Source of the DNA: Ignavibacteriota bacterium
Lineage (GTDB): Bacteria; Bacteroidota; Ignavibacteria; UBA10030; UBA6906
Length of the DNA stretch: 64,000 bases
Direction of reading: 5' to 3'
NCBI GenBank assembly: GCA_963748405.1
Contig: CAVVIT010000004.1
Location: 84,171 to 148,170, forward strand
Shown here: positions 19,367 to 57,068 of the stretch, in pieces
How positions within the stretch are numbered: the stretch's first letter is position 1
Layout: each line of letters begins with the position of its first letter
The notes under the pieces: generated by a model
The model's database searches: none
What the model was told of the DNA's origin: nothing
Seen by the model: only the letters and a program-made list of their open reading frames with translations
Program-made: the position numbers and the translations under genes

Positions 19367-20138
19367 ACACGATCGCGTTACGCTTCTCGGGTGCCCACTT
19401 GACCTCGTCGATTTCGAAGAGGCCGCCTCCTGGTGCTTCGACGCCGCGCGCGCGAAGGGGAGCCCGGCGCAGCTCGTCACCGTCAACGCACAGAGCCTCC
19501 TGATGATGCGCGACGATCCGGCGATGGATCGTGCGATCAGGGAGGCGGCGATGGTCGTCGCGGACGGCGCGTCGATGGCCCTGGCGGCCCGGATCCTCCG
19601 GCTTCCCTGGAAAGGGCGCGTCACCGGCGTCGACCTGATGGCGCGTCTTCTGCGCGACGGGTCGTCGCGCGGACTGAAGGTGTATTTTCTCGGCGCCACG
19701 GACGTCGTGCTCGACCGGCTGCTGGCCGTCACGCGCGAGCGGCACCCGGGTCTCGTCGTGGCGGGGTACCGGAACGGGTATTTCGACAGGGAAAAAGACG
19801 GGGAAGTCATCGACGCTATCCGCGCTTCGGGCGCGGACGTGCTGTTCGTGGGGATGCCGACCCCCTTCAAGGAGGTCTGGCTCCACAGGAATCTTTCCCG
19901 GTTCGGCGCCGGGCTCGTCATCGGCGTGGGGGGGACGTTCGACGTTCTCGCCGGGCTCGTGCCCCGCGCGCCCGTCTGGATGCAGCGGGCGGGACTCGAA
20001 TGGTCCTGGCGTTTGATGATGGAACCCCGTAAACTCTGGAAACGGAATCTCGTGTACAATTCGCGGTTCGTGGCCCTTCTCCTGCGGGAGAGGATCCTGC
20101 ACGGGCGGGCGCGCGTCGAAACGGCGGTGGGCAGGTGA
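19356..20138 (+). CDS. WecB/TagA/CpsF family glycosyltransferase (GT26)
   Basis: LLGCPLDLVDFEEA...LVTVNAQSLLMM...VADGASMALAARIL...GVGGTFDVLAG are GT26 signatures. Confidence 0.8.
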   Translation: MSSEHDRVTLLGCPLDLVDFEEAASWCFDAARAKGSPAQLVTVNAQSLLMMRDDPAMDRAIREAAMVVADGASMALAARILRLPWKGRVTGVDLMARLLRDGSSRGLKVYFLGATDVVLDRLLAVTRERHPGLVVAGYRNGYFDREKDGEVIDAIRASGADVLFVGMPTPFKEVWLHRNLSRFGAGLVIGVGGTFDVLAGLVPRAPVWMQRAGLEWSWRLMMEPRKLWKRNLVYNSRFVALLLRERILHGRARVETAVGR

Positions 20139-24292: not shown

Positions 24293-24293
24293 C

Positions 24294-25412: not shown

Positions 25413-25414
25413 CG

Positions 25415-32256: not shown

Positions 32257-34224
32257 ATGATCGAACAACTGGTTGTCGCCTTCGGGGTGGCCGCCGCCGC
32301 CGCCCTACTGTTCACACCGATCGTCATCCGGATCGCACACGTCGTCAACGCGGTCGACCTTCCCGGTGAGAGGAAGATCCACACGCAACCGATACCGCGA
32401 CTCGGAGGTCTTGCCGTCGCAGCATCCTTCGCCGTTACCGCACTCCTGGTGTTCCTCACCCGCTCCGACATCGTGTCCCCTCCCTGGGAGTCGTCCGTGC
32501 AGGGGATAGGTCTGGCGCTGACGGGGATTCTCGTTCTCGGACTCGGGATGTGGGATGACATCCGGCAGCTCGGACCGGGGAAGAAGTTCGTCCTCCAGGT
32601 CGCCATCGCATCGATCGTGTTTCTCGCGGGGATCAGGATCTCCATCGTGTCGCAGCCGCTGGGCGGGGGTTTCTTCGACCTGGGCTGGATCAGCTACCCG
32701 GTGACCGTCCTCTGGATCGTCGGCATCATGAACGCACTGAACCTCATCGACGGTCTGGACGGACTAGCCTCGGGCGTTGCCATGGTCGCCCTGCTGACAA
32801 TCGCGGCCGTCGGGTTCGTGAAGTTCAACGACAGCGGAACCGCGATGCTCGCCGTGATCCTGGCGGGTTCTCTCCTCGGGTTCCTTCGATATAATTTCAA
32901 TCCGGCGAGAATATTCCTCGGAGATTCCGGGAGCCTCTTCATCGGGTTTTCTCTCGCGATCCTTTCGATGCTGAGTTCGACGAAAGGGTCGGCGGCGTTC
33001 GCCGTCCTCATCCCCGCGCTGTCGCTCGGCCTGCCGATACTCGATACTGCGCTGGCAATGCTCCGGCGGCTCCTCAGGCCGTTTATGAAATCGGAAGGGA
33101 ACGGGGAATCGACGCTCCGGCGCCTCCGGTCGATGTTCCTCCCCGACAGGGACCATATCCATCACCGGCTTCTCGCGCTCGGGCTTTCCCAGAAGGAGGC
33201 GGTGATCCTCCTGTATTTCGTCTCGTCCGCGCTCGGCTGCAGCGCATTCGGGCTGACGGTAGCCGACAATGTCAGCGGGGTCATGATTCTCGCCGTGGCC
33301 GGGATCGCGATGTTCGCGGGGATTCACCGTCTGCGCTACCGCGAATTCGCCATATTCCGGAGGGGAGTGCTTCTCCCGCTGTATGATCGCCCGTTCGTCC
33401 ACAACCCCGCGTTCCAGATCGCCATGGATCTCGGGTTCACCAGCGTGGCATTCGTACTTGCCTACGCCCTGTCGCAGGACGGCAGGACAGTGGACTTTTC
33501 GTACGACGCATTCCGCTGGCTTCTCGTGGGTGTGACGGCCGTGCAGATGACCGTCTTCTTCTTCTCCGGGGTGTACAAAGGGATCATGCGCCACGCGGGG
33601 GTCGAGGACGCCGTCCGCATCATGAAGGCGCTCGTGATTTCTTTGGCAATCGGCGTCGGGGCGCACTATGTCGGCGGGTTCGACCTGTCCGGCGCCATGA
33701 CGAAGACGTTCCTTCTCGACTTCTACTTCCTGCTCACGCTTCTCGTGATGTCACGGTTCTCGTTCGCGGTCCTGAACCGCATTGCGCACGAGACGCAGGA
33801 GGGGAAGGATCCCGTCGTGATTTACGGTACAGGCGAGCGCGCGGTCGTTGTGGCCCGGCTTCTCCTGAACTCTCCCGAGCTCAAGATGCGCCCGGTCGGG
33901 TTCATGGACGACGTCCGCTCCATGGAGGGAAAGTCGATACACGGACTGCCCGTCTTCGGCGGCATATGGAAGATCGAGCCCCTGATCAAGACCGCCGGCA
34001 TCAGGGGGGTCATCATTGCAACCGATGACATCAAGCCCGGGGTGCTCTCGAGGCTTCGCAAGCTTTCCCGCGTCCACCGTTTGCCGGTGAAGACATTCAG
34101 CCCGCTATTCCAGGACCTGTCGCCAGAGCCGGAATCCCAGCCGGCGTTTCACCCTGCCTTTGTCAACGAGGCGGGCGAAGTGGTGATTTCCCGCTCCTCC
34201 TACAGGGGCGGAAATCAGGCCTGA
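32257..34224 (+). CDS. polyprenyl-phosphate N-acetylhexosamine-1-phosphate transferase (WecA/MraY-like GT4 PNPT) fused to an extra TM region and a CoA-binding-like C-terminal domain
   Basis: GIMNALNLIDGLDGLASG and RIFLGDSGSLFIGF are MraY/WecA family motifs. The C-terminal ~250 aa (VVIYGTGERAVVVARLL...GIRGVIIATDD) resembles the NAD/CoA-binding linker domain found N-terminal in WbaP/PglF-type proteins. Total 655 aa. Confidence 0.7.
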   Translation: MIEQLVVAFGVAAAAALLFTPIVIRIAHVVNAVDLPGERKIHTQPIPRLGGLAVAASFAVTALLVFLTRSDIVSPPWESSVQGIGLALTGILVLGLGMWDDIRQLGPGKKFVLQVAIASIVFLAGIRISIVSQPLGGGFFDLGWISYPVTVLWIVGIMNALNLIDGLDGLASGVAMVALLTIAAVGFVKFNDSGTAMLAVILAGSLLGFLRYNFNPARIFLGDSGSLFIGFSLAILSMLSSTKGSAAFAVLIPALSLGLPILDTALAMLRRLLRPFMKSEGNGESTLRRLRSMFLPDRDHIHHRLLALGLSQKEAVILLYFVSSALGCSAFGLTVADNVSGVMILAVAGIAMFAGIHRLRYREFAIFRRGVLLPLYDRPFVHNPAFQIAMDLGFTSVAFVLAYALSQDGRTVDFSYDAFRWLLVGVTAVQMTVFFFSGVYKGIMRHAGVEDAVRIMKALVISLAIGVGAHYVGGFDLSGAMTKTFLLDFYFLLTLLVMSRFSFAVLNRIAHETQEGKDPVVIYGTGERAVVVARLLLNSPELKMRPVGFMDDVRSMEGKSIHGLPVFGGIWKIEPLIKTAGIRGVIIATDDIKPGVLSRLRKLSRVHRLPVKTFSPLFQDLSPEPESQPAFHPAFVNEAGEVVISRSSYRGGNQA

Positions 34225-34470
34225 TTCTGCCGTGTCAACGGGGCGCCGTCCGGCGTCCCGTTGACATTTCCGGCCGAAATCCGTAGATTCATTCCGAACT
34301 TGCAGGCAGTGCCTGTCCTGTCCCGAAAGGAATCGATACCCGCCCCGTTGCTACGAAATCTCCCCGCTGCACCTCCCCGGCGCCGGGTTTTGAGGGTGCC
34401 GGTGTCGTCCATTTCACGTCCGCATCCACATGCGGCCGAACACTCGTTATGTCGCATATTGAGGTGACTG

Positions 34471-34944: not shown

Positions 34945-34947
34945 CGT

Positions 34948-35961
34948 ATGAAATCCCTCCTTGTCACAGGCGGTGCGGGATTCATCGGAAGCAACTTCAT
35001 CAGGTACTTCCTTGAGTCCCATGCCGACATCCGCGTTGTGAATTACGACAAGCTGACGTACGCAGGCAACCTGGACAATCTCCGGGACATCCAGGACCAC
35101 GGCAGGTACGTATTCGTCCGCGGCGACATCTGCGACAGGGACGAAGTCGCCGGCGTCCTGAAGAAATACGACATCAGCACCGTCGTCCACTTTGCCGCGG
35201 AGTCGCACGTCGACAGGAGCATCGCCGGGGCGTCGGTCTTCGTGACGACGAACGTCCTGGGCACCCAGGTCCTTCTGGATGCGGCACGGGAACGGAAGGT
35301 CGAGCGGTTCCTCCATGTCTCGACGGACGAGGTCTACGGGTCGCTGGGTGCGTCGGGAAAGTTCACCGAGTCGACCACGGTGCACCCGAACAGCCCCTAC
35401 GCCGCGAGCAAGGCCTCGTCCGACCTCCTTGTCCTTGCCGCAGTTCATACGTTCGGCTTTCCCGCGATCGTCACACGGTGCTCGAACAACTACGGGCCCT
35501 ACCAGTTTCCGGAGAAGCTCATCCCGCTGATGATCGCCAACGCGATGGACGATAAGCCGCTCCCCGTGTACGGCGAGGGGGCGAACGTCCGCGACTGGCT
35601 CTTCGTCCGCGATCATTGCACGGCGCTCGATGCCGTGCTCGGCCGGGGCCGGCCGGGGGAGGTGTACAACATCGGCGGGAACAACGAATGGCGGAACATC
35701 GACATCGTGAAGCTCCTGCTCTCGATGGTCGGCAAGCCGGAGAGCCTCATCACGTTCGTGAAGGACCGTCCCGGGCACGACCTGCGCTATGCGATCGACG
35801 CCTCGAAGATCACGAGCGAGCTCGGCTGGGCGCCGTCGGTCACGTTCGAGCAGGGACTCAGGCAGACGGTGGAGTGGTACATCAAACATGAGCCCTGGTG
35901 GCGCGGGATCATCAGCGGGGCATACAAGCAGTACTACAGGGAGATGTATGAAGACCGGTAA
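34948..35961 (+). CDS. rmlB: dTDP-glucose 4,6-dehydratase
   Basis: MKSLLVTGGAGFIGSNFIRYFL, HFAAESHVDRS, PYAASKASSD (Y-x3-K), and NYGPYQFPEKLIPLMI give a full-length match to the RmlB/RfbB family. Confidence 0.9.
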   Translation: MKSLLVTGGAGFIGSNFIRYFLESHADIRVVNYDKLTYAGNLDNLRDIQDHGRYVFVRGDICDRDEVAGVLKKYDISTVVHFAAESHVDRSIAGASVFVTTNVLGTQVLLDAARERKVERFLHVSTDEVYGSLGASGKFTESTTVHPNSPYAASKASSDLLVLAAVHTFGFPAIVTRCSNNYGPYQFPEKLIPLMIANAMDDKPLPVYGEGANVRDWLFVRDHCTALDAVLGRGRPGEVYNIGGNNEWRNIDIVKLLLSMVGKPESLITFVKDRPGHDLRYAIDASKITSELGWAPSVTFEQGLRQTVEWYIKHEPWWRGIISGAYKQYYREMYEDR

Positions 35962-37372
35962 TCACCAGAGCTACTTTCGGCGAAACGTTGTCGCGGCAAA
36001 CCTCCTTGCTCTCCTTGCCTGTCACACGCTGTCGCCCGGCCAACAGGAGTCGCGTCAATCAACGACCGCCCCCGAATTTCCGAAAGCCGCTCCGATCAGC
36101 GTGACGATCGGAGGCGGGTTTCCCGTCAACGGAACGTTCGCGGCATCCCCTTCGGAGCGTGTCGACCAGTTCGTCACCCGGGTCTATACCGGCGCCATGG
36201 ACGCCATGGCGGGAAGGTACGAACGTCTTCCGGCCCCGCAGCCTTGGAGCACGGCAGGGCAGTCGGCCGAGGAGCTGGCTGGATACCCCCTGCGCAATAT
36301 CAGGCTGAAGAGGATTTCGGGAGAGGAGATCGTCATCGACATTCAGAAATTCCGGCTCACGGGGGATTTCAGCGACAACCCGTACCTCAAGAACGACGAT
36401 GTCGTGATTTTTCCTGTTGTCGACAGGGATCATGATTTCGTCTCCATCTCGGGGGGTGTTACCCGCCCGACAAGATTTCAGTTCGTTCCTGGAGACCGGC
36501 TTTCGGTGGCCGTCCTTTTCGGAGGAGGCCTGCTGTCGACGGCCGACAGCGCCGGCAGGGTGACGATCTCCCGTCTCGATCCGACAGGCCAGATCGAGAC
36601 GCGGATCGAGGCAACACTTCATGGAAATCCGACGTTGGTGCAGGGAGACCGCGTCGTTGTCTGGCTCGGCGAAAACGAAAAATTTGACTACCGGGTCAAC
36701 GTTTCGGGCGAGATCCTCAGACCGGGTTTCGTTCCGATCACGAAGAATTCGACGACCCTCCGGGATGTCATCAGCAAGGTGGGCGGGTTCAAGCCCAACG
36801 CCGATCTGGATCGCGCTGAGCTCATCCGCGGGGCGAACGTCTTCCGCTCTCTTTTCTATACTGAAACGTTCGAGGACCTGATGATGACCCGGACCGCGAA
36901 CATCGCTCCGGAAGACTCGCTGGTCCTCTTCATCGACAACAAGCTGAGGTTCCAGAGGGGGAACGGGCTGATTGACTTCACGAAGATCGACTCCACGTCG
37001 GAAGGAGATTTCATCGTCCGGGACGGCGACTTCATCTTTGTGCCGGAACGCCTGAACCTCGTCTATGTGTTCGGTCAGGTCAAGACTCCCGGCTATGTTC
37101 AGTTCGAGCCGGGGAGAGGTTACTCGTTCTACCTCGATAAATCCGGAGGCCCCGCGGAGACGGCCCGGGACGAAGTGTTCCTCATCAAGGGAAAAACGAG
37201 GACCTGGAAGCGGTTGAGCGATCCGGAGGCGGGAGGAATAGAAGCCGGGGACTTCCTCTGGGTGCCCAAGATCATACGCAGGGACTTTGACTACTATTTC
37301 GTCCGGGTGGGTGCCACCGCGCAGATTGTCGGGGCGATCGCAACGCTGATTATTCTCATCAAGCAGTTCTGA
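35948..37372 (+). CDS. polysaccharide export outer-membrane protein (Wza/KpsD-like, SLBB domains), lipoprotein
   Basis: Lipobox signal peptide ...NLLALLACHT. Polysaccharide-export N-domain plus repeated SLBB-type beta-grasp segments (GDRVVVWL, GDFIFVPER, GDFLWVP). Start ATG 35948 overlaps the rmlB end by 14 nt (alternative frame). The upstream part of ORF 35789..37372 is rejected as Arg/Ser-rich. Confidence 0.7.
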   Translation: MKTGNHQSYFRRNVVAANLLALLACHTLSPGQQESRQSTTAPEFPKAAPISVTIGGGFPVNGTFAASPSERVDQFVTRVYTGAMDAMAGRYERLPAPQPWSTAGQSAEELAGYPLRNIRLKRISGEEIVIDIQKFRLTGDFSDNPYLKNDDVVIFPVVDRDHDFVSISGGVTRPTRFQFVPGDRLSVAVLFGGGLLSTADSAGRVTISRLDPTGQIETRIEATLHGNPTLVQGDRVVVWLGENEKFDYRVNVSGEILRPGFVPITKNSTTLRDVISKVGGFKPNADLDRAELIRGANVFRSLFYTETFEDLMMTRTANIAPEDSLVLFIDNKLRFQRGNGLIDFTKIDSTSEGDFIVRDGDFIFVPERLNLVYVFGQVKTPGYVQFEPGRGYSFYLDKSGGPAETARDEVFLIKGKTRTWKRLSDPEAGGIEAGDFLWVPKIIRRDFDYYFVRVGATAQIVGAIATLIILIKQF

Positions 37373-37445
37373 CCCGCCCGAACCCGCCGGGTGGGATCGT
37401 GCGCAAGTTGACTTCACACTTCGTTGCTCACACACATCAAAGCCA

Positions 37446-38702
37446 ATGACATCGTCGAATAGTGCCGCCCCCGCTGAAGGGGGGACGGAGGGGCGTCCCT
37501 CAGCGCTTCTCGTTCTCGTGGAGATTCTGACGCAATGGTGGAAGCTCATCGCGGGATCGGTCCTCGTGTGCGGCATCGCGGCGGGCGTCGCCGCCTTTCT
37601 TATCCACCCGCAGTTCAAATCGGTCACGGCAGTGTTTCCCTCTCAGCCGGCGGACCTCTTTGGCGCCTCCGAGGGGGTTTCGGGTCTCGTCAAGTCTCTT
37701 ACGCCCAAGGGGATCCCCGGGTTGAGCGCCAACACCGAACTCGACAGGTACCTCGCCATACTGAAGAGCGGACGTGTGGTGGGGGACGTGATCAAGAAGT
37801 TCGACCTTGTGAAGGTGTATGACATTACGTCGTATCCCGCGGAGATGACGGCGAAGAAGCTGATGGAGAACACGGAGTTTGTGGAGGAGCCGGAAGGTGA
37901 CCTTACGATCGCCGTGTATGACGAGGACCCGCAGCGGGCCGCCGACATGGCAAACTTCTTCGTCGAAGACCTGAACATCACCAATACGGAGCTGCAGAGC
38001 CAGAACGCCCGCGCCAACCGTGCCTTCATTGAAGAGAGGTACAACAAGAACATTCAGGATATCGACGCTGCCCAGGAATCTCTCCGCGTGTTCCAGAAGC
38101 GGTACGGTGTCATTGCGCTCCCCCAGCAAACCGAGGCCACGATCAAGGCGGGAGCGGAGATCGCGGCCCAGCTTGCGTTGAAGGAAGTGCAGCTCAACGT
38201 GGCGCGTCGGACGCTGGCGGACGATAATCCCGCCGTCCAGCAGCTGCGCATCGAGATGCAGGAGCTACGCCGGAAAATCTCCGAGATGAACACTGCGGAG
38301 GCCGCCCCGGGCGAGCTGAACATCTTCGTCCCGTTCGCCTCAATTCCCGACCTGGGCTCGACGTATCTCCGCCTGTACAGGGAAGGGGAGATGCAGTATA
38401 AGATCCTGCAGTTCATCGCCCCGCTGTACGAACAGGCCAGGGTCGAAGAGCGCCGCCAGACCCCTTCCGTCATCGTGCTCGACAGGGCGGGTCCCGCAGA
38501 ACGCAAGTCACGGCCGAAGCGATTGCCCATCATCATCGGTGGAATGCTCGTGGGACTCATCGGGTCGCTCGGGTTCATCGCGCTTGCCCGCCGCTGGAGG
38601 ATGGAGAAGGAGCGCGATTCCCCCCTGTATTTTGCGGTGGGACGGCTCGCCGCGGTCCTTCGGACCGATCTTCGCCGGCCCTTCGGGCGCTCATCGCGCT
38701 GA
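37446..38702 (+). CDS. polysaccharide co-polymerase / chain-length determinant protein (Wzz-like)
   Basis: N-terminal TM (LIAGSVLVCGIAAGVAAFLI), a long coiled-coil periplasmic region (ELQSQNARANRAFIEERY...LRIEMQELRRKISEM), and a C-terminal TM (LPIIIGGMLVGLIGSLGFIAL). This is the PCP-1/Wzz architecture. Confidence 0.7.
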   Translation: MTSSNSAAPAEGGTEGRPSALLVLVEILTQWWKLIAGSVLVCGIAAGVAAFLIHPQFKSVTAVFPSQPADLFGASEGVSGLVKSLTPKGIPGLSANTELDRYLAILKSGRVVGDVIKKFDLVKVYDITSYPAEMTAKKLMENTEFVEEPEGDLTIAVYDEDPQRAADMANFFVEDLNITNTELQSQNARANRAFIEERYNKNIQDIDAAQESLRVFQKRYGVIALPQQTEATIKAGAEIAAQLALKEVQLNVARRTLADDNPAVQQLRIEMQELRRKISEMNTAEAAPGELNIFVPFASIPDLGSTYLRLYREGEMQYKILQFIAPLYEQARVEERRQTPSVIVLDRAGPAERKSRPKRLPIIIGGMLVGLIGSLGFIALARRWRMEKERDSPLYFAVGRLAAVLRTDLRRPFGRSSR

Positions 38703-38706
38703 AGAC

Positions 38707-40155
38707 ATGGAACAAGCCACCGGTCGCTCGCCGCTCGGGTCCGTTTCCCTGGAACTGCCGGACTATTCCGTCCGCCTCGGCGCGCTTCTGTGCGTCACGG
38801 TTCTGATCGGGGCGTACATCGCGAGCGTGGCCCTGGATTCCGCCGGGCTCTATTTCATCATCCTCCTCGGACTGGTCGTGCTGGGAACGGCCCTGATCCG
38901 GTTCGAAAGCGCCCTTCTGTTCGTCCCGATAACCATCACCAATCCCTACGTCCTCAAAGAGACGGGGACCAACATGAGCCTCTCGGAATACGTTCTCCTC
39001 ATCCTCTACATCGTCTGGTTCATACGACTGATCCCGTCGCGGGAGCGATTGCACTACCCGAAGGCGTTCGCCCTCCCGGTCATTCTGATCATCGGCACCG
39101 GCGTGCTTTCGCTGGCAGCGGCGCATTACCCCGGCACAAGCGCCCTGCAGGATATCCGGTATATTGAAGTCCTCGGGGTCCTGTTTTTTGTCATCGTCAA
39201 TGAGTGCCGGACTGAGAAACAGATCAAGTCGATGGTCTTCTTTCTCATGATCGGGGGGCTCATTGCCTCGCTCATCGGCATCGGGCAGTTCATCTTCTTT
39301 GCGGGGACGATGGGGGAGGTCCACCGCGTGTCGGGATTGCTCGGCGGCGCGTTCGGCGGCGTTGCCGGGACCACGGTGTGCCTCGCCTTTGGCATGCTCC
39401 TGTTTGACCCGTCACGTGGAAAGAAAACCTTCGCCGTCGTCGTCCTCGGCATCGCCCTGACGGCCCTTATCATGAGCCAGACGAGAGCCTGGATCGGCGG
39501 GGCGGCCATCGGTCTTCTGACCGTGATGCTGCTGGGGCGGGCGAAGGCGGCCCGATCCCTGATCCTGCTCGCGTGTGCAGGTTCGTTCGTCATCTACATT
39601 TTCACCCAGACCGGTGTCTTCGGCGCGTCCGGGAGCGGCGCATTGAGAGGGGCCCTGTCGAAAGCGTTCCGCTATGAGTCTCCGGCAGGAGGAGTGTCGG
39701 TGGGCGACCTCGCGCTGTACGAACGTCTCATCGTCTGGCGCAAAGCCGTCAGTCTCACCGCGCAAAACCCGCTGTTCGGGATCGGCGCAGGGAACCTCCG
39801 GTTCGACGACTACCTCCGCGCGCACCTCACCGCGCCGGTGCAGTCCGCCGGTTACGTGGACAACCAGTACCTGAATTTCTTTGCCGAAGCCGGACTCCTG
39901 GCAGGCATCGCGTGGCTGGCGTACATGTTTGTCTCGGTCCGGGCAGGACTGAGAGGACTGAGGAATTCCGCGGGGACGGCGTTGCACGCCGACGCCTACG
40001 GGCTGTTTCCCTCGCTCCTGCTGTTCGTCGTCGGATCGGTCTTCTGGGTGGTGACCGCCCAGCATGATTACTTTGCCGTGGTGGTCGTGCAGATCGCGCT
40101 TCTGTACAACGTGAGCCGCGGTGTCCCGGCGGCCGATCCCGCCGGAGCGGGCTGA
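38707..40155 (+). CDS. O-antigen ligase / Wzy-like polymerase family membrane protein (second copy)
   Basis: IMSQTRAWIGGAAIG and VDNQYLNFFAEAGLLAGIAWL match Wzy_C family motifs, with ~10-12 TM helices. Start ATG 38707 lies 5 nt after the upstream stop. Confidence 0.7.
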   Translation: MEQATGRSPLGSVSLELPDYSVRLGALLCVTVLIGAYIASVALDSAGLYFIILLGLVVLGTALIRFESALLFVPITITNPYVLKETGTNMSLSEYVLLILYIVWFIRLIPSRERLHYPKAFALPVILIIGTGVLSLAAAHYPGTSALQDIRYIEVLGVLFFVIVNECRTEKQIKSMVFFLMIGGLIASLIGIGQFIFFAGTMGEVHRVSGLLGGAFGGVAGTTVCLAFGMLLFDPSRGKKTFAVVVLGIALTALIMSQTRAWIGGAAIGLLTVMLLGRAKAARSLILLACAGSFVIYIFTQTGVFGASGSGALRGALSKAFRYESPAGGVSVGDLALYERLIVWRKAVSLTAQNPLFGIGAGNLRFDDYLRAHLTAPVQSAGYVDNQYLNFFAEAGLLAGIAWLAYMFVSVRAGLRGLRNSAGTALHADAYGLFPSLLLFVVGSVFWVVTAQHDYFAVVVVQIALLYNVSRGVPAADPAGAG

Positions 40156-41690
40156 TGCACGAACCGGGCGGACAATCGCACACTGCGCGGATGCTCGCGA
40201 AGAACACGCTGAACAACCTCGCGACGCAGGTTGTTCTCGTCCTGATTTCCTTTGTGAGCTTTCCCATACTTGTCCGGGGGATTTCCGCGGAGGGATTCGG
40301 ACTGCTGTCGCTCGTCTGGGTGCTGATCGGCTATTTCAGCATTCTCGATCTGGGCGTGAGCAGGGCGATTACAAAGTTCGTCGCGGAGTTCCTTGCACGT
40401 GATGATCAGGCACGGATACGGGAGATTACGTGGACGTCCCTTTCACTCAGCGCCGTCTTCGGAAGCGCCGTAGGCCTCCTGATCGTCGTCACGCGCGGGT
40501 ATGTCGTGACAGAGTTGTTCCACGTCTCGGACGCGATGAGCGCGGAGGCTCGCACCTCGCTGGTCATCGCAGCGGTGGGGATACCCTTCATGCTGGCGCA
40601 GGGGATCCTCCGGGGCGTTCAGATCGCGTACCAGCGGTTCGATCTCGCGAACGGATTCCAGGCGGCGACGGGCGCAATCCAGTGGGTGGGCTCATCCCTT
40701 CTCGTTGCGTTCGCCGGAGGGGGAGTGCGGGAGGTCGTTCTGCTCACCGTCGTGTCGCGCGTTCTCGCCGTGGCCGCATCGCTCGCCGTGCTGCCCGGCA
40801 TGATGCCGGGTGCGTACAGGAACGTGCGCGTCTGGGATCGGTCGCATGCGCGGACTCTCCTTTCCTTCGGGGGATGGGTCTCCCTGACGCAGGTCCTCGC
40901 GCCCCTGTTCACGTATGTGGACCGGCTGATGATTGCGTCGTTCATGGCGCTCACGTCTGTCGCGTACTATACCGTGCCCCAGGAGTCGGTCAACAGGCTG
41001 ATCATCCTGCCGATGAGCCTGACCACCGCCCTGTACCCGGTCCTGAGCGGGTGGTCAACGGGGATGCCGGGCTCAGAAAAGGCGGGCGCGATGTACACGC
41101 GCGCTGTCAAATACGTCGCGGCCCTGATTCTCCCGGTGGCCGTGGTCCTGTTTGTTTTTTCACGTGAGATCCTCCGGCTGTGGATGGGCGAGGAATTCTC
41201 GGCGCACGGGAGTCTTCCGCTGCAGATTCTCCTCGTCGGCCTCTTTTTTAACGCGGTCTCGCAAATTCCCGTGACGGCACTGCACGCCAACGGGCGCCCT
41301 GACCTCCCGGCGAAGTTCAATCTGGTGGAGCTTCCATTCATGATCGGGCTGAATCTGCTGCTGATCCCCCTGCTCGGCATCGCCGGTGCGGCGATTACCT
41401 GGACGCTCAGGGTCATGCTCGACGCCGTGCTCCTTTTTCGTGCCGCGAGAACGTACAGCCGGGGTTCGGAGTATTTCAGCGGCACGGAAAAGGCTCCCCG
41501 CACGCTTGTCATGCTCGCAACCGGACTGTGTCTTCTCGTCGCCCTGATGTGTTCCGTCCGGAATGAGCCGCTCCGTCTCGCCGCCGCCGCCGTGTTTGTC
41601 GCGGGATACGTCTACGGCGTCTGGAGGCACGGGTTTGACGACACGGACAGGGGGTTCGTGTTTGCATTGAAGAGCAAGTTTCTCGGATGA
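40155..41690 (+). CDS. wzx: Wzx-type oligosaccharide flippase (MOP superfamily), second copy
   Basis: AKNTLNNLATQVVLVLISFVSFPILVRGISAEGFGLLSLVW is a typical PST-family N-terminus. 12-14 TM helices. TGATG overlap with the upstream stop. An alternative start is MLAKNT at ~40191. Confidence 0.75.
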   Translation: MHEPGGQSHTARMLAKNTLNNLATQVVLVLISFVSFPILVRGISAEGFGLLSLVWVLIGYFSILDLGVSRAITKFVAEFLARDDQARIREITWTSLSLSAVFGSAVGLLIVVTRGYVVTELFHVSDAMSAEARTSLVIAAVGIPFMLAQGILRGVQIAYQRFDLANGFQAATGAIQWVGSSLLVAFAGGGVREVVLLTVVSRVLAVAASLAVLPGMMPGAYRNVRVWDRSHARTLLSFGGWVSLTQVLAPLFTYVDRLMIASFMALTSVAYYTVPQESVNRLIILPMSLTTALYPVLSGWSTGMPGSEKAGAMYTRAVKYVAALILPVAVVLFVFSREILRLWMGEEFSAHGSLPLQILLVGLFFNAVSQIPVTALHANGRPDLPAKFNLVELPFMIGLNLLLIPLLGIAGAAITWTLRVMLDAVLLFRAARTYSRGSEYFSGTEKAPRTLVMLATGLCLLVALMCSVRNEPLRLAAAAVFVAGYVYGVWRHGFDDTDRGFVFALKSKFLG

Positions 41691-42640
41691 AACAGACCGA
41701 CCTCACCATCATCGTCGTAACGTACAGGCAGTGGGACCGGGTGCGGGTGTGCCTTCAATCGGTGTTCAGGGAATGCGCAGGTCTGGACGCCGACGTTATT
41801 GTCGTTGACAACGCGTCCGGAGACGGCACGGCCGGGAGGGTCCGGAATGAATTCCCTGCGGTGCGGATCATCGCCAACGAACGCAACAGGGGCTTTGCCG
41901 CTGCGAACAACCAGGGGATCGGGGAGGCACGGGGTCGCAACATCCTCCTGTTGAACCCGGACACGGAGGTGCACAGCGGAGCAATACGCGCCGTGCTGGC
42001 ATTTCTTGACGAACACCCTCTCGCCTGGGTTGCGGGCTGCAGGCTCAATTCCGCCGACGGTTCGCTCCAGGCTTCCGTCGGCGCGTTCCCGTCGATCCTG
42101 GAAGGAGTGCTCAGGGCGAGTTTTCTCTATCTCCTTCTGCCGGCGAACGCCGTGATCGGCAGCCGGAGCGTCCGGAAGTTCGACTATACACGGCCGGCTG
42201 CCGTGGATTGGGTCATGGGCGCGTTTCTGATGGTCCGCCGGGAGGCCATCGGGCGGATCGGAGCTCTTGACGAGCGGTTCTTCATGTACTCGGAGGAGGT
42301 CGATTTCTGCAGGCGTGTGTGGGAGGAGGGGCACGAGGTGTGGTACACCCCCGCAGGAACCGTCACCCATTTCTGGGGAGGGCAGAACGCCGTGAGCGCC
42401 AGGACCTATGTGTGGCTTCACGCAAGCCAGATCCTCTATTTGAAGAAGCACTACAGCGGGCCCGGCTTGGCCGTCATGGTGATGGTGAAGTATGCCGGAT
42501 TGGCGCTTCGCGTGGTCGTCTACGCGGCCGTCGGCTGCCTGAGAATGGACCGGAGGTTCATCGCGAAGTCGGCGTATGCCCTCAGAGCCATCCGGCGGCT
42601 TCTCCTGACGCCGGTTCCGGCGTTGTGGGAGGCCGATTGA
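41687..42640 (+). CDS. glycosyltransferase family 2
   Basis: LTIIVVTYRQWDRV...VIVVDNASGDGT...LLLNPDTEV, FMYSEEVDFCRRV are GT2 (rhamnosyltransferase-like) motifs. ATGA overlap with the upstream stop. Confidence 0.8.
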   Translation: MKQTDLTIIVVTYRQWDRVRVCLQSVFRECAGLDADVIVVDNASGDGTAGRVRNEFPAVRIIANERNRGFAAANNQGIGEARGRNILLLNPDTEVHSGAIRAVLAFLDEHPLAWVAGCRLNSADGSLQASVGAFPSILEGVLRASFLYLLLPANAVIGSRSVRKFDYTRPAAVDWVMGAFLMVRREAIGRIGALDERFFMYSEEVDFCRRVWEEGHEVWYTPAGTVTHFWGGQNAVSARTYVWLHASQILYLKKHYSGPGLAVMVMVKYAGLALRVVVYAAVGCLRMDRRFIAKSAYALRAIRRLLLTPVPALWEAD

Positions 42641-42678
42641 TGGGGCGGGAAATGTCGAATGCAAAGGAGATCTGACAG

Positions 42679-43860
42679 GTGGGCGGGGGATCTGCATACT
42701 GGTTTCTGAGAGTCGCCGAATTCGTCTTCTGGGGTTCGCTGGGAATAGTGGCGTATTCCTACCTGCTGTACCCGCTCATTGTCGCCGCGCTCGTGAGGGT
42801 GAGGGGGCCCCGGCCCGTATTCAGGGATGAGGCGTATTGCCCGGTCGTTTCAATGGTCATATCGATATACAACGAGGAGGCGGTGCTGCCCGAGAAACTC
42901 CGCAACCTGGAGGCGACAACGTATCCCGCGGAAAAGCTGAGGTTCGTCCTCGGATCGGACGGTTCTTCGGACGGCACGAACAGGATTCTCGCCGCGTGGA
43001 GCCATCCTTCGAAGCGGGTCATCGAATTCAAGACGCGGAGGGGGAAGGGGCCGGTGCTGAACGACCTGGTGCACGCAGCCGAGGGCGAAGTCGTCGTCTT
43101 CTCGGACGCAAACACGATGTACGATCCCCTGACCGTCGCCAGGCTCGTTCAGCCGCTGGCGGATCCCGCCGTGGGCGCAGTCTGCGGTGAGCTTGTGCTC
43201 GTCTCGGAAGGATCGGAAGCGGGGGGAACCGGAGAGGTCTCGTACTGGTCGTATGAGAACTGGCTCAAGCGGATGGAGAGCGAGGTTCATTCCATGCTGG
43301 GGGCCACCGGTCCCCTGTACGCGATCCGGAAATCGTTGTTTGTCCCGCTGCCGGTTCACAAGTCCGTCACCGATGATTTTCTGATTCCCATGAACATCAT
43401 CATGAAGGGGTACCGGTTCATCTATTCGCGGGACGCGACAGCCTACGAGAAGACCTCGGGATCGATGAAGGGGGAATTCCGCCGGAAAGCGCGGATCGGG
43501 GCACAGAATTTCGCCGGCATTGCTGATCTCAAGCCCCTTCTTCTTCCGGGAGCGGGTTTTACGGCGTTTGCGCTCTGGTCGCACAAGATCATACGGTGGT
43601 TTGTGCCGTTTCTGGCGATACTGGCATTCGTGGCGACCGCCGTCCTTGCTCCCGGCTCGCTCTTCTTCTCGATTGTTTTCGCACTGGAGATTGCGTTCCT
43701 TGTGATCGGGGGAGTGGGCTTCATCGCCGACAGATCGCACGTGCACCTGCGCAACGGCGGGCTTCCGTACTACGTCCTTGCGATGAACGCCGCTCTGCTC
43801 GTCGGATTCTTCCGCTGCGTCCTGAAGCGACAGCGAACGACCTGGGAGGTCTTCCGGTAA
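42679..43860 (+). CDS. membrane glycosyltransferase family 2 (synthase-type with flanking TM helices)
   Basis: N-terminal 2 TM, VVSMVISIYNEE...FVLGSDGSSDGT...VVFSDANT (DxD), EFRRKARIGAQNF, and 3-4 C-terminal TM helices. GTG start. Confidence 0.75.
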   Translation: MGGGSAYWFLRVAEFVFWGSLGIVAYSYLLYPLIVAALVRVRGPRPVFRDEAYCPVVSMVISIYNEEAVLPEKLRNLEATTYPAEKLRFVLGSDGSSDGTNRILAAWSHPSKRVIEFKTRRGKGPVLNDLVHAAEGEVVVFSDANTMYDPLTVARLVQPLADPAVGAVCGELVLVSEGSEAGGTGEVSYWSYENWLKRMESEVHSMLGATGPLYAIRKSLFVPLPVHKSVTDDFLIPMNIIMKGYRFIYSRDATAYEKTSGSMKGEFRRKARIGAQNFAGIADLKPLLLPGAGFTAFALWSHKIIRWFVPFLAILAFVATAVLAPGSLFFSIVFALEIAFLVIGGVGFIADRSHVHLRNGGLPYYVLAMNAALLVGFFRCVLKRQRTTWEVFR

Positions 43861-43861
43861 G

Positions 43862-45256
43862 ATGTCCAACCGCCGCGAAATCTTCGTCCTGCTGATTTCG
43901 GACCTGCTGATGATCTCGGCCGGGTGGACGCTCTATTTCATATTCCGCGTCCGGAGCGGGCTGTTCGAAGTGAGCGGCCAGCCCGATTTCTGGGCGCCGA
44001 TGTTCGCGGTAACGGCGTTCTGGCTTCTCCTTTTTTTCGTTGTCGGGCTGTACCGGCCCTGGTACGCGGCCTCCCGGTTTGACGAGCTGGCTCTTCTGTT
44101 CAAGACCGTGGTGATGGGATCGCTGATCGTGTTCTTCGCGGTGTTCCTTGACGACGCCGGGAGGCCCACCGGGACGAATTCCCGGCTCCTGATCGCGGTG
44201 TACTGGGCCGACGTGCTCCTCATGGTGTCACTGGGACGCATGGTCCTCCGCAGCATCCAGCGCCGGATGCTCATCGCGGGGATCGGAGTGCACAACACGC
44301 TCATCGTCGGGAGCAGCGCCCGGTCGCGCGAGCTCTGCAGTGAGGTGGAGAAGTATCCGGCGCTGGGATACAAGGTCGTGGGCTTCGTCGGGCTCGACCG
44401 CCGCAGGTCCGGGCAGAATTATCGAAAGATCCGGGTCATGGGGGGGATCGACGACCTCTCGGAAATCATCCGCCGGGAGGATGTCCTCGAGGTGCTTGTC
44501 GCGCTCGACTCCGCCGATCACGGGCGCCTTCTCGAGATTATGAGCAAATGCAACGGGCACAAGGTCAGCATCAAGATCATGCCCGACCTGTACGACATCA
44601 TCAGCGGCCAGGCCAGGACGAATCAGATCTATGGGTTCCCGCTGATCGAGATCACCCCTCAGCTGATGCCCGCCTGGGAGGAATCGACGAAACGGCTTCT
44701 CGACGTTGCGGTGTCGGTGGCGATCCTCGTGGTGGGACTTCCTGTGTGGATCCTCATCGCCGTGGTCATCAAGCTGGAATCCCCGGGTCCGGTGCTGTAC
44801 CGCCAGGAACGGGTGGGCAAGGACGGCGCCGTGTTCAACATCGTGAAATTCCGGTCGATGGAGAGGGACGCGGAAAAAAGCGGACCGAAGTGGGCGGGAA
44901 GACGGGACCCGCGCATTACGGGCTTCGGCAGGATCCTGCGCCAGCTCCATCTCGATGAGATTCCGCAGATGGTCAACGTCCTGAAAGGCGACATGAGCCT
45001 GATCGGGCCGAGGCCTGAACGACCGGTGTTCGTCGAACGGCTGTCGAAGGAGATCCCCCTGTACCAGAGGCGCCTGAAAGTCAGGCCGGGGATCACCGGG
45101 TGGGCGCAGGTGAAACAGCGGTACGACGATACGATCGAGGACGTGAAAAAGAAAGTGCAGTACGACCTGTTTTACATCGAGAACATGTCTCTCAGGATGG
45201 ACTTCAAGATTTTGCTCAATACAGCGTACCACGTGCTCCTCGGCCGCGGAAGGTAG
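43862..45256 (+). CDS. undecaprenyl-phosphate hexose-1-phosphate transferase (WbaP/EpsB-like polyprenyl glycosylphosphotransferase, priming enzyme)
   Basis: 4-5 N-terminal TM, a CoA-binding-like linker (NTLIVGSSARS...), and a complete Bac_transf domain: KRLLDVAVSVAIL...PGPVLYRQERVGKDGAVFNIVKFRSM...DPRITGFGRILRQLHLDEIPQMVNVLKGDMSLIGPRPE...PGITGWAQV. Confidence 0.9.
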   Translation: MSNRREIFVLLISDLLMISAGWTLYFIFRVRSGLFEVSGQPDFWAPMFAVTAFWLLLFFVVGLYRPWYAASRFDELALLFKTVVMGSLIVFFAVFLDDAGRPTGTNSRLLIAVYWADVLLMVSLGRMVLRSIQRRMLIAGIGVHNTLIVGSSARSRELCSEVEKYPALGYKVVGFVGLDRRRSGQNYRKIRVMGGIDDLSEIIRREDVLEVLVALDSADHGRLLEIMSKCNGHKVSIKIMPDLYDIISGQARTNQIYGFPLIEITPQLMPAWEESTKRLLDVAVSVAILVVGLPVWILIAVVIKLESPGPVLYRQERVGKDGAVFNIVKFRSMERDAEKSGPKWAGRRDPRITGFGRILRQLHLDEIPQMVNVLKGDMSLIGPRPERPVFVERLSKEIPLYQRRLKVRPGITGWAQVKQRYDDTIEDVKKKVQYDLFYIENMSLRMDFKILLNTAYHVLLGRGR

Positions 45257-45301
45257 CGCCGCGGAGCGCGTTCCCATATCACGATGCAGAAAGAAGAATC
45301 C

Positions 45302-46420
45302 ATGAAACTTCAGATGGTTGACGTGGTCGGGCAGTACAAACACATTAAGCCGGAAGTCGATGCCGCGGTGCTCGCGGTGCTTGATTCCGGGATGTTCATC
45401 CAGGGGAAAGAAGTCGGGGAACTCGAACGCGATGTGGCCGGTTACCTTGGAGTGAAGCATGCCGTCGGGTGCGCCTCGGGCACCGATGCCCTGCAGATTG
45501 CGATGATGGCTCTCGGTATCGGCCCCGGGGACGAGGTGATCACGACGCCGTTCACGTTCGTGGCGACGGCGGAAACGATCGCGATCCTCGGCGCGAAGCC
45601 CGTCTACGTGGACATCGACCCCCGGACCTTCAATATCGACCCGTCGCTTGTCGAGGCTGCCGTCACCCCGCGCACGAAGGCGATCATCCCGGTCCATCTC
45701 TACGGTCAGCCCGCGGACATGGACCCCCTCCTGGCGGTTGCCCGGACGCATGCGATTCCCGTGATCGAGGACGCCGCCCAGGCGATGGGTGCATCGTACG
45801 GAGGTCGAAAGGTCTGCTCGCTCGGCACTATCGGCTGCATCAGCTTCTTTCCCAGCAAGAACCTCGGGTGCTTCGGCGACGGCGGAATGGTGGTGACGGA
45901 CGACCCCGCCCTTGCGGAGTCGATGAAGGTGATTGCCGCCCATGGATCCAGGGTCCGTTATTATCACGAAGTCCTCGGGCTGAACAGCCGGCTGGATACG
46001 ATCCAGGCCGCCATCCTGAAGACGAAACTGCCGCACCTGGGGGCGTACAACGCCGCACGGCAGAAGGCGGCCGCACGTTACAACGAGCTGCTGGCGGGAC
46101 TTCCCGTGACGGTCCCGTTTGTGGCCCCCGGGGCGGAGCATATTTTCCACCAGTACACGCTGCGCGTGCCGAAGCGCGATGCCCTCGCTGCGTCACTCAG
46201 GGAGAAAGGCATTCCTCACGGAGTCTATTATCCGGTGCCGCTCCATCTTCAGAAAGCATTTGCCATGTCAGGCGGGAAGAAGGGAGACTTCCCGGTGACA
46301 GAGCGCGCGTGCGAAGAGGTTATCTCGCTCCCCATGCACACGGAGCTCACCGAGGAGCATCTCGGGTTCATCACGAGGGCGATACGTGAATTCTACGCCG
46401 ACAAGTCTTCCGCCCACTAA
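45302..46420 (+). CDS. DegT/DnrJ/EryC1/StrS family PLP-dependent nucleotide-sugar aminotransferase
   Basis: FIQGKEVGELERDVAGYLGVKHAVGCASGTDAL, ISFFPSKNLGCFGDGG (Schiff-base Lys context), GLNSRLDTIQAAIL are the family signatures. Confidence 0.85.
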   Translation: MKLQMVDVVGQYKHIKPEVDAAVLAVLDSGMFIQGKEVGELERDVAGYLGVKHAVGCASGTDALQIAMMALGIGPGDEVITTPFTFVATAETIAILGAKPVYVDIDPRTFNIDPSLVEAAVTPRTKAIIPVHLYGQPADMDPLLAVARTHAIPVIEDAAQAMGASYGGRKVCSLGTIGCISFFPSKNLGCFGDGGMVVTDDPALAESMKVIAAHGSRVRYYHEVLGLNSRLDTIQAAILKTKLPHLGAYNAARQKAAARYNELLAGLPVTVPFVAPGAEHIFHQYTLRVPKRDALAASLREKGIPHGVYYPVPLHLQKAFAMSGGKKGDFPVTERACEEVISLPMHTELTEEHLGFITRAIREFYADKSSAH

Positions 46421-46438
46421 CAGGAGCCGGATCGTACA

Positions 46439-47155
46439 GTGCCAAGGACCCTCGTCGTCATCCCGACATTCAATGAATCGGAGAATATTCCGCGGCTGAT
46501 CCCTCTGATCCTCCAGCAGGGTGAAGGGATCGAAGTGCTCGTCGTCGACGACAGCTCTCCCGACGGTACGGGGGACCTCGTCCGGAAGATCGGGGAGAAG
46601 GACCCCCGCGTGCACCTGATGGAGCGCGCCGCCAAAATGGGGCTCGGCACCGCGTATGTCGCCGGGTTCCGGTACGCGCTTGAGGGAAATTACGACTTCG
46701 TGTTCGAGATGGATGCGGACTTTTCCCACAACCCGAAGGAGATCCCCGCGTTTCTCCGGAAGACCGCCGAAGCGGACCTTGTTGTCGGATCCCGGTACAC
46801 GAACGGCGTGCGGGTGCTGAACTGGCCGATGCAGAGGCTTCTCCTGAGCTGGACGGCAAATATCTGGACAAGGTTCTGGACCGGCCTTCCGCTGAACGAT
46901 GCAACGGGCGGTTTCAAGTGCTACCGCATCGAGGTCCTCAGGGGCATCAACCTGGACAAGATCCGCTCGAACGGTTATGCGTTTCAGATCGAAATGAGCT
47001 ACATGGCCTGGCGCAAGGGTTTCCGTCTGCGGGAGATCCCGATCGTGTTCCTGGACCGGAACGCCGGGCAGTCGAAGATGTCGAAGCACATCGTCTACGA
47101 AGCGTTTTTCATGCTGTGGAAACTGAGGTTTCGTGGTATGCTGAACAGGCTCTGA
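46439..47155 (+). CDS. polyprenol-phosphate glycosyltransferase (GT2, DPM1/ArnC-like)
   Basis: LVVIPTFNESENIPRLI...EVLVVDDSSPDGTGDLVRKI...FVFEMDADFSHNP, GGFKCYRIEVL give the DPM1-like architecture. GTG start. Confidence 0.8.
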   Translation: MPRTLVVIPTFNESENIPRLIPLILQQGEGIEVLVVDDSSPDGTGDLVRKIGEKDPRVHLMERAAKMGLGTAYVAGFRYALEGNYDFVFEMDADFSHNPKEIPAFLRKTAEADLVVGSRYTNGVRVLNWPMQRLLLSWTANIWTRFWTGLPLNDATGGFKCYRIEVLRGINLDKIRSNGYAFQIEMSYMAWRKGFRLREIPIVFLDRNAGQSKMSKHIVYEAFFMLWKLRFRGMLNRL

Positions 47156-47159
47156 CGGC

Positions 47160-51602: not shown

Positions 51603-51616
51603 TCCCGGGACCACAC

Positions 51617-56760: not shown

Positions 56761-56793
56761 CGAGGGGGGCTCAGATGAGCCCCCCGGCTTTTG

Positions 56794-56867: not shown

Positions 56868-57068
56868 TGCATATTCGAGCTGTTTTAGCCGATTCCTGGC
56901 CGGAAGAACCTCTCCGTGGACAGGTTTACGTCCAATACTTGTTACAATTTGGTAACAATTGGTATTAGGCCTTGCCGGCTTGGATTGGCTTATGCGACAA
57001 TAAGGTAACAAGTGTTGACCGGGAATTCAAGGAGGAAAGAATCAGGCACGGTCACGTATATGATAGAG

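Follow-up and report, generated by a model that had tools for sequence, protein, structure and literature searches.

Why does an enzyme that would initiate a bacterial polysaccharide carry a second membrane module behind its catalytic domain? The question is raised by the gene at 32257-34224 of the window, by which we mean the whole 64,000-nucleotide stretch of contig CAVVIT010000004.1 (Ignavibacteriota bacterium, assembly GCA_963748405.1). Phosphoglycosyl transferases (PGTs) commit scarce undecaprenyl phosphate (Und-P) to one glycoconjugate pathway or another, and the regulation of this commitment is poorly understood. An initial annotation had called the product of the gene a polyprenyl-phosphate N-acetylhexosamine-1-phosphate transferase (PNPT) of the WecA/MraY family, about 300 residues longer than WecA, and had likened the added part to the linker domain of PglF/WbaP-type proteins. 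We are highly confident that the gene encodes a polytopic PGT of the WecA/MraY family which carries the module of WbaP-type large monotopic PGTs (Lg-PGTs), namely a bundle of four transmembrane (TM) helices (4TMH) followed by a Rossmann-like domain of unknown function (DUF).

Architecture of the fusion protein

The gene is a single uninterrupted open reading frame (ORF) on the + strand, which starts at 32224 (TTG) or 32257 (ATG) and ends at 34224. Read from the ATG at 32257 it specifies 655 aa. This length and N-terminus are those of the family consensus and of P0001, a database protein from a 337-kb contig of a metagenome-assembled genome (MAG), which is 100% identical to the window protein. 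E. coli WecA has 367 aa; the fusion protein is 288 aa longer, close to the excess given by the initial annotation. The parts of the gene are as follows, with cytoplasmic placements as predicted.

32257..34224, + strand: whole gene, PNPT-(4TMH-DUF) fusion, 655 aa, stop included (ORF, identity to P0001, full-length family)
32257..33327, + strand: polytopic PNPT catalytic domain, WecA/MraY fold, 11 TM helices, residues 1-357
32554..32559, + strand: D100-D101, 'DD' (Mg2+-binding) motif of cytoplasmic loop II (invariant in a 42-sequence alignment)
32731..32763, + strand: N159-ALNLIDGLDG-169, NxxNxxDGxDG catalytic motif of cytoplasmic loop III (family alignment)
33154..33165, + strand: H300-I-H-H303, WecA-type HIHH motif of the large cytoplasmic loop V (family alignment)
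33328..33417, + strand: arginine-rich cytoplasmic linker (RLRYREFAIFRRGVLLPLY...), residues 358-387 (conservation, K+R = 6)
33418..33771, + strand: 4TMH bundle of the accessory module, residues 388-505 (hydropathy, AlphaFold2, alignment to the TM part of Lg-PGT models)
33772..34107, + strand: cytoplasmic Rossmann-like DUF (PF13727), five strands and three helices, residues 506-617
34108..34224, + strand: C-terminal tail, residues 618-655 and stop, unconserved and probably disordered (conservation, AlphaFold2)

Two Pfam domains exceeded their gathering thresholds. PF00953 (Glycos_transf_4) covers residues 85-240 and scored 140.9 bits (cutoff 27, E 4.5e-41); PF13727 (CoA_binding_3) covers residues 438-588 and scored 39.6 bits (cutoff 25, E 7.2e-10). 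Among the NCBIfam models, WecA (TIGR02380) had the best score and aligned to residues 17-347. In the EPS_sugtrans, WcaJ and WbaP models it was positions 2-221, the N-terminal TM and DUF part of Lg-PGTs, that aligned with residues 390-614. A sequence search of PDB matched the N-terminal half to MraY and human GPT, and residues 516-592 weakly to 3nkl (E 0.017). WbaP was not retrieved by this search, and structure and profile methods were needed for it. These results bear out the assignment to the WecA/MraY family made in the initial annotation. The peptides that it had quoted are all present: NALNLIDGLDGLA at residues 159-171, FLGDSGSLF at 220-228, VVIYGTGERAVVVARLL at 520-536 and GIRGVIIATDD at 581-591. 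We found no match to PF02397, the catalytic domain of monotopic PGTs (monoPGTs), in the fusion protein at E<=1 in Pfam, and its C-terminus lies only 38 residues past the DUF. Therefore the protein is not an Lg-PGT, despite its Lg-PGT module.

Hydropathy analysis placed 11 TM segments in residues 6-357 and four more in residues 388-505, followed by a soluble region. With the N-terminus outside, the predicted cytoplasmic loops contain 27 lysine and arginine residues and the periplasmic loops 5, in agreement with the positive-inside rule. The DD and NxxNxxDGxDG motifs, the HIHH loop, the linker and the Rossmann-like domain are all predicted to face the cytoplasm. We built an AlphaFold2 model from a 42-sequence family alignment (mean pLDDT 71.9, pTM 0.56). 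The pLDDT was ~70-94 for most of the first ~240 residues and for most of the module at 380-615, below 60 across much of residues 250-370, and below 50 at 354-370 and in the tail (618-655), which had no secondary structure. The catalytic half has the 10-11 TM helices and the MraY/GPT fold of a polytopic enzyme. The helices of the 4TMH bundle were modelled at 384-406, 416-437, 449-472 and 479-512. Both hydropathy and the model put this bundle directly N-terminal to the cytoplasmic DUF, as the definition of the module demands. Structure comparison showed that the soluble domain was modelled as five strands and three helices, like the solved DUF examples.

Homology of the module and conservation of the fusion

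The extension aligned by BLASTP with the N-terminus of the WbaP-like protein of the same window over 226 residues (21% identity, E 1e-8). When an alignment of the fusion family was compared by hhalign with an alignment that included the two further proteins of the window with this module, the probability was 97.8% and the E-value 9e-13, over 235 columns across the entire 4TMH and DUF region. Residues 388-617 are homologous to the 4TMH and Rossmann-like DUF module of WbaP-type Lg-PGTs and PglF-type dehydratases. The TM helices and Rossmann-like domain proposed by the initial annotation, with their likeness to PglF and WbaP, thus stand on Pfam, NCBIfam, BLASTP and hhalign evidence; only the name 'linker domain' is better replaced by the 4TMH and DUF module of Lg-PGTs. 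The module follows the catalytic domain instead of taking its typical N-terminal place, and it forms a separate sequence subfamily with motifs of its own (LEGK, FGGHWK). We rejected a recent local duplication of the WbaP module of the window on the basis of the 21% identity and the separate subfamily. As judged from sequence and predicted structure, the protein has all tested features of a PNPT and all tested features of the module except domain order; the dimerisation hairpin of WbaP is not evident.

We observed that the fusion is widespread. Nearly all of the 120 best homologs were annotated with both PF13727 and PF00953, at identities from 90% down to ~42%, and they were 627-680 aa long, bar three shorter entries, two of which are labelled partial. 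These full-length homologs came from many metagenomes and MAGs, and the fusion recurred in independent assemblies from NCBI, ENA, JGI and Logan. Further, a search with only the C-terminal 311 residues, made against 1.84 billion representatives clustered at 50% identity, gave 3726 matches at E <= 1e-3, of which 700 reached E <= 1e-10 and 42 reached E <= 1e-30. Full-length proteins (>= 580 aa) made up 78 of the best 150 matches. The module was located at ~330-630 in all 78, and a strict PNPT motif stood upstream of it in 56. Thirteen full-length matches were considered as possible carriers of another N-terminal partner for this module subfamily because they were without the strict motif. Ten were tested and all ten carried PF00953 and PF13727, so the regular expression was too strict, and other partners were rejected on these ten. 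The shorter matches look like fragments; the one that was examined, P0121, had been considered as a split-gene candidate and was rejected, as it starts at a contig edge. We saw no evidence of split, two-gene versions among the matches of this search, which was not exhaustive. A profile search of genome contigs with the full-length alignment yielded at least five fusion loci among the matches listed, the rest being plain WecA/TagO genes. Plain WecA/TagO-like genes from many phyla were ~36-45% identical over residues 1-360.

Source labels of the fusion were mainly of the FCB-group: Bacteroidota, Ignavibacteriae/Ignavibacteriota, Chlorobiaceae, Latescibacteria and Balneolaceae MAGs. One 'Eubacteriales' MAG was also among them, on a short contig. 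This range was taken from source names; it is incomplete and represents a minimum. Automatic names within the family are inconsistent, since P0270, a 314-aa C-terminal fragment in the 90% cluster of P0001, was named 'FlaA1/EpsC-like NDP-sugar epimerase' while full-length members were named GlcNAc-1-P transferase or hypothetical. We found no description of a PNPT fused to PF13727 in the literature, most subscription journals lying outside the search, so that this absence is no proof. Lg-monoPGTs and PglF-like dehydratases are the only carriers of the module described in the literature that could be searched. The architecture is undescribed rather than undetected, because automatic domain annotations show it.

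Mean column conservation was 0.67 in the catalytic half, 0.69 in the linker, 0.48 in the 4TMH bundle, 0.57 in the DUF and 0.21 in the tail. In the 42-sequence alignment D100, D101, N159, N162, D165, G166, L167, D168 and G169 were invariant, as were H300, H302 and H303, with I301 conserved at 90% or more. The linker residues L359, Y361, E363, G370 and L373 were invariant too, and so were Y523, G524, P546, G548, F549, G558 and G568 of the DUF, whose family motifs are YG(A/T)xxxG, PVGF(L/M)DD, (L/M)EGK and FGG(H/I)WK. The invariant DUF residues, the family motifs and the conserved linker indicate that both halves and the junction are under selection. An artefact, whether through a sequencing or assembly frameshift or through a chimera of a WecA gene and the 5' part of a WbaP/PglF-like gene, would be suggested by the unusual protein length and by nothing else. 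The same architecture, length and junction recur in the independent assemblies at 41-90% identity, and the junction-spanning linker is among the most conserved segments. A local chimera is excluded by the separate subfamily and by the mere 21% identity to the WbaP-like module of the window. We therefore ruled out a frameshift or chimera, for which the remaining probability is negligible, and the fusion is a conserved one whose extension resembles nucleotide-binding domains.

Pathway context and donor sugar

We compared seven homolog loci (L081, L082, L084, L085, L086, L089 and L088). In the first six a Wza-type exporter gene precedes the fusion, the product of which is 43-47% identical to that of the window. 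These six loci share a divergent cluster with genes for Wzz/GNVR, a bacterial tyrosine kinase (BY-kinase)-like protein, a WecG/TagA-family glycosyltransferase (GT), Wzx and GT1, and Wzy is present in the cluster in five of the six. A polysaccharide deacetylase, and sometimes Acetyltransf_6, then follow where the locus reaches far enough. In three loci GH18 genes adjoin the fusion:

L085 12335-18760, L086 12060-15300 and L089 12102-15945: one or two GH18 (chitinase / endo-beta-N-acetylglucosaminidase family) genes directly downstream of the fusion

Their position is consistent with a GlcNAc-containing polymer. Some of them carry sorting domains of the type IX secretion system (T9SS).

Two kinds of gene of another sort were seen upstream of the fusion. 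In five of the seven loci the Wza-type gene and the fusion are separated by an unannotated gene of 253-314 aa. A truncated, stand-alone sigma54-type AAA+ gene of 260-290 aa is found upstream of the fusion in three of the seven; only the Sigma54_activat and AAA_lid families were listed for it, with no receiver or helix-turn-helix domain.

L081 8208-9994, L085 8095-9854, L089 7932-9714, L082 8993-9916 and L086 9118-9879: upstream unannotated and/or sigma54-type genes

It is possible that these proteins are regulators or partners of the fusion enzyme. No counterpart of either gene was detected in the window.

The locus L088 has a fusion protein of 66% identity and the same local order as the window (FG-GAP/TIG, T9SS protein, fusion, RmlC-like, RmlB, Wza, Wzz-like, Wzx). 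Past Wzx its glycosyltransferase content departs from that of the window, and this pattern is typical of a conserved edge next to a variable polysaccharide region.

The partner proteins of the homolog loci were compared with the window by tblastn. The upstream part of the window gave the best matches, and the sole matches for all queries but one: Wzy at 103-1662 (39-41%), deacetylase at 1669-2448 (37-49%), GT1 at ~4660-5886 (34-37%), WecG at 19356-20138 (29-35%) and Wzx at 8033-9538 (39-41% over full length), while the downstream Wzx (40155) reached only 24%. The polysaccharide genes of the window are the following.

103-1662, + strand: Wzy-like polymerase, Wzy_C-like (Pfam, tblastn to the fusion-linked set)
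1669-2448, + strand: polysaccharide deacetylase (Pfam, tblastn to the fusion-linked set)
8033..9538, + strand: Wzx flippase, orthologue of one travelling with the fusion elsewhere (PF01943, tblastn)
19356..20138, + strand: WecG/TagA-family glycosyltransferase, likely the second-step enzyme (PF03808 E 1e-55, orthologue in 6 of 7 loci)
35789..38702, + strand: Wza-like exporter (SLBB) and Wzz/polysaccharide co-polymerase (PCP)-like protein (Pfam; Wza start probably near 36000)
38539..47155, + strand: second gene set, from Wzy_C to the last GT2 (Pfam)
38539-40155, + strand: second Wzy_C-like gene (Pfam)
40155-41690, + strand: second Wzx-like gene (Pfam)
41687, 42679 and 46439, + strand: GT2 genes of the second set (Pfam)
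43862-45256, + strand: complete WbaP-type Lg-monoPGT (PF13727 and full-length PF02397, E 4e-69; DE and PRP motifs intact)
45284, + strand: DegT aminotransferase (Pfam)
~51600-53071, + strand: third Wzx/Polysacc_synt-like gene, among nadC, DUF1385 and prfA, outside the main polysaccharide clusters

The true start of the last gene is probably later than 51362, because the listed ORF start overlaps nadC. Genes for epimerases/dehydratases lie at 6887, 12259 and 34948, and one for a UDP-sugar dehydrogenase at 13375. We saw no cell-wall or cell-division genes near the fusion, and the context of the window is polysaccharide synthesis. Scanning of the flanks for sigma-70 promoters and terminators gave no more sites than expected by chance, and the consensus may not suit this lineage.

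The initial annotation had reported a complete polyprenyl-phosphate hexose-1-phosphate transferase at 43862-45256, which we recovered with both domains and intact motifs. Of its two Wzy-like and two Wzx copies, the former count was right and the latter was short by one, as there are three Wzx-like genes. Two pathways are plausible, because two initiators of different superfamilies each have their own Wzy/Wzx set. The upstream fusion-linked set and the downstream WbaP-type set plausibly make two polymers; this earlier proposal gains from the comparative context (the fusion-linked partners map upstream, and the downstream Wzx is only 24% identical), short of proof. Export may be shared, since a single Wza/Wzz pair is visible in the window.

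Which sugar would the enzyme transfer? The meaning of the DD and NxxNxxDGxDG motifs was defined previously (PMC5222938), and a passage of the same paper, citing Amer & Valvano 2001 and Lehrer 2007, implicates HIHH in UDP-GlcNAc recognition by bacterial WecA. With WecA as the best model, an invariant HIHH, a WecG/TagA partner, and the deacetylase and GH18 genes, we infer that undecaprenyl-diphosphate-GlcNAc (Und-PP-GlcNAc) is the primer of a Wzx/Wzy polymer, the donor specificity being probably for GlcNAc. Characterised WecG/TagA-family glycosyltransferases act on Und-PP-GlcNAc. The fusion enzyme would move GlcNAc-1-phosphate from UDP-GlcNAc to Und-P with release of UMP, and the co-travelling WecG/TagA-type transferase would add the first sugar to Und-PP-GlcNAc. 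The linked Wzx would then flip the product, Wzy would polymerise it, and Wzz/Wza would export it. The outcome would be a GlcNAc-initiated surface polysaccharide, partly de-N-acetylated or otherwise decorated. Taken whole, with a WecA-type GlcNAc-1-P transferase, a WecG/Wzx/Wzy pathway and regulation by the module, we consider this explanation moderately probable.

Several observations weigh against it. The WecA model TIGR02380 gave 120.7 bits, below its curated cutoff of 326.05, so we file the protein as WecA-like and not as a WecA equivalog. The MraY model TIGR00445 likewise fell short (68.9 bits against 192.05). As both equivalog scores are below their cutoffs, GlcNAc specificity is argued from motifs and context. 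The canonical WecG cluster does not adjoin the fusion in the window or in L088, and WecG was not seen within 10 kb of the fusion in L088; the pathway assignment is thus less direct in the clade of the window than in the other six loci. As for the module, the glycine-rich loop of the DUF varies across the family (YGTGERA, YGADxxG, YGAGxxG), and the beta6/beta7 dimerisation hairpin of WbaP is not evident after beta5 in the monomer AlphaFold2 model or in the alignment. The inter-domain geometry of that model is unreliable (pTM 0.56).

The low WecA equivalog score would also fit a different donor, such as UDP-GalNAc, UDP-QuiNAc/FucNAc (as for WbpL) or a di-N-acetylated sugar, and many sugar-modifying enzymes are encoded in the window (6887, 12259, 13375, 34948, 45284). 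We regard another donor as unlikely, given that the family keeps HIHH invariant, a motif tied to recognition of UDP-GlcNAc by WecA, and that a WecG/TagA-family transferase accompanies the fusion in six of seven loci.

Four paralogous Acetyltransf_6 (PF13480) genes are located at 20567, 21843, 23033 and 25409 (20567-26605 of the window, + strand). They are interleaved with a GT2 gene and adjoin WecG, and Acetyltransf_6 is also present in the fusion-linked cluster of L082. At the right end of the window there is a tRNA-Arg (TCG) at 56793-56867 (- strand), and from there rightward (56793-64000) the GC content falls from ~0.61 to 0.48-0.54. This part contains a 710-aa primase-like gene (BT4734-like_N, DUF5906, PriCT_1) at 58154-60286 and a gene at 61590-63185 with a weak Peptidase_C39_2 match. 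A mobile element has probably integrated at the tRNA-Arg and occupies the region to its right.

Role of the module and comparison with known systems

A role for the module may be sought in WbaP, for which alone uridine-nucleotide binding or UMP inhibition of a module-bearing enzyme is known (PMC10942596). The isolated WbaP DUF is stabilised by UMP, UDP and UTP in nano differential scanning fluorimetry, and UMP inhibits full-length WbaP with an IC50 of 4.1 uM (PMC10942596). By analogy, the DUF of the fusion may bind uridine nucleotides and throttle the transferase upon UMP accumulation. Such feedback would ration Und-P between the fusion pathway and the WbaP-initiated pathway of the same locus. 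The linker, conserved as highly as the active site, would couple the module to the catalytic part, and the oligomer may gain stability from the 4TMH bundle and DUF as well. We prefer feedback or oligomer control because a WecA-type enzyme, like WbaP, releases UMP and consumes Und-P. A nucleotide-feedback role of the module on the fusion enzyme is nevertheless put forward tentatively.

The module could instead be purely structural, a dimerisation or membrane scaffold that steadies the PNPT oligomer without sensing a ligand. WbaP dimerises via its DUF, which holds most of the contacts between chains, mainly through the beta-hairpin, and its 4TMH bundles also touch (PMC10942596). EpsZ of M. xanthus belongs to Lg-PGTs without the hairpin, and its activity is proposed to need a DUF-mediated dimer, promoted by a regulator (PMC12802240). 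The variable glycine-rich loop of the fusion family would be in keeping with a nucleotide site that is non-canonical or missing. MraY-family enzymes, however, are reported active as dimers without the module (PMC10942596), so that the need for a further dimeriser is not obvious, and the hairpin that carries the dimer contact in WbaP is not detectable in the fusion. Moreover, little or no variation was seen in the surface-type motifs PVGFLDD, LEGK and FGGHWK, and this points to a functional site under conservation. A solely structural role appears doubtful.

Docking is the other alternative: the module would be a platform by which the initiating enzyme recruits a regulator or a partner from its pathway, for instance a single-domain response regulator, the sigma54-type AAA+ protein, the ~305-aa unannotated protein or the Wzz/BY-kinase pair. 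The precedent is EpsZ, whose DUF interface is the target of the activating response regulator EpsW~P; the model places their direct contact where the DUF dimer forms (PMC12802240). The sigma54-type gene stands immediately upstream of the fusion in three of the seven loci and the unannotated gene in five, and in L088 a single-domain Response_reg gene lies ~4 kb upstream. On the other hand, no candidate partner is encoded beside the fusion gene in the window, and co-localisation in an operon is weak evidence of physical contact. We consider docking improbable. The response-regulator gene of L088 (122 aa, 5911-6279) is worth recording in its own right, because a single-domain response regulator activates EpsZ via its DUF in Myxococcus; no counterpart of it was seen in the window.

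Beyond this gene, nucleotide feedback at the committed step could extend to other carriers of the module. A 'one-size-fits-all' role in UMP feedback was proposed for it earlier. It is possible, though we hold it with some doubt, that the 4TMH and DUF form a portable cassette, indifferent to the fold of its partner, which in every case senses uridine nucleotides and/or controls oligomerisation. This cassette might have been recruited independently by both PGT superfamilies, and PglF-type dehydratases and a GT2/pseudo-PGT family might have taken it up as well, a part of the proposal that we hold with equal reserve. Its purpose would be to control how Und-P and the flux of UDP-sugars are allotted at the committed step.

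The GT2/pseudo-PGT family is represented in the window by a third PF13727-bearing protein, beyond the account of the initial annotation. It is encoded at 47160-49145 (+ strand; 661 aa) and consists of GT2, 4TMH, PF13727 DUF and a truncated Bac_transf domain. Its family is strongly conserved: the 120 best clusters listed are 61-84% identical, ~650-690 aa long and from MAGs labelled Bacteroidota/Ignavibacteriae. In every aligned member a ~60-aa segment is missing, the one in which KFRSM and the catalytic Asp-Glu dyad would lie. PRP is replaced in these proteins, which do retain the re-entrant helix and the C-terminal motifs. The protein seems to combine a conserved pseudo-monoPGT scaffold with a GT2 that looks intact. 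Three architectures of the 4TMH and DUF module thus occur within 17 kb (32257-49145), with the module behind a PNPT, before a monoPGT, and between a GT2 and a pseudo-monoPGT, and this makes the locus a compact comparative system.

How does the fusion compare with known enzymes? With WecA and TagO (PF00953; relatives MraY and DPAGT1) it shares the 11-TM domain, DD, NxxNxxDGxDG, HIHH and the MraY/GPT fold, as well as residence in Wzx/Wzy-type polysaccharide loci with a WecG/TagA partner. Unlike WecA, TagO, WbpL, MraY and GPT as described, it has ~300 extra C-terminal residues (linker, four TM helices and Rossmann-like domain), and it scores under the equivalog cutoffs of both WecA and MraY. With Lg-PGTs (S. 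enterica WbaP, PDB 8t53; WcaJ, CpsE, EpsZ) it shares the homologous 4TMH and PF13727 DUF, including the five-strand, three-helix core described for the DUF of WbaP and EpsZ (PMC12802240). The reaction, too, would be alike, with sugar-1-phosphate passed from a UDP-sugar to Und-P, UMP released and a Wzx/Wzy pathway initiated. In contrast to Lg-PGTs, its catalytic domain belongs to an unrelated polytopic superfamily and is without PF02397, and its module is C-terminal instead of N-terminal, with no evident beta6/beta7 hairpin and with the motifs LEGK and FGGHWK of its own. Membrane-anchored UDP-sugar 4,6-dehydratases of the PglF/WbpM/CapD type (N-terminal domain structure 3nkl) differ in having the module at the N-terminus and a soluble short-chain dehydrogenase/reductase (SDR) dehydratase as its partner. 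The family with GT2, module and pseudo-monoPGT (47160-49145) is similar to the fusion in its module (hhalign E 9e-13), in its lineages and in placing the module after another catalytic domain; it differs in its GT2 partner and in its degenerate monoPGT C-terminus without the catalytic Asp-Glu dyad.

In summary, the same module is found on a second, mechanistically unrelated PGT superfamily, in reversed order and in sequence clusters that number in the hundreds. The range of enzymes that the module serves becomes wider, and nothing is overturned. The fusion offers a natural test of the role of the module, as its catalytic fold and mechanism are unlike those of WbaP while the by-product UMP is identical. 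If the fusion enzyme were regulated in a UMP- or DUF-dependent manner, the cassette would be established as a general feedback device.

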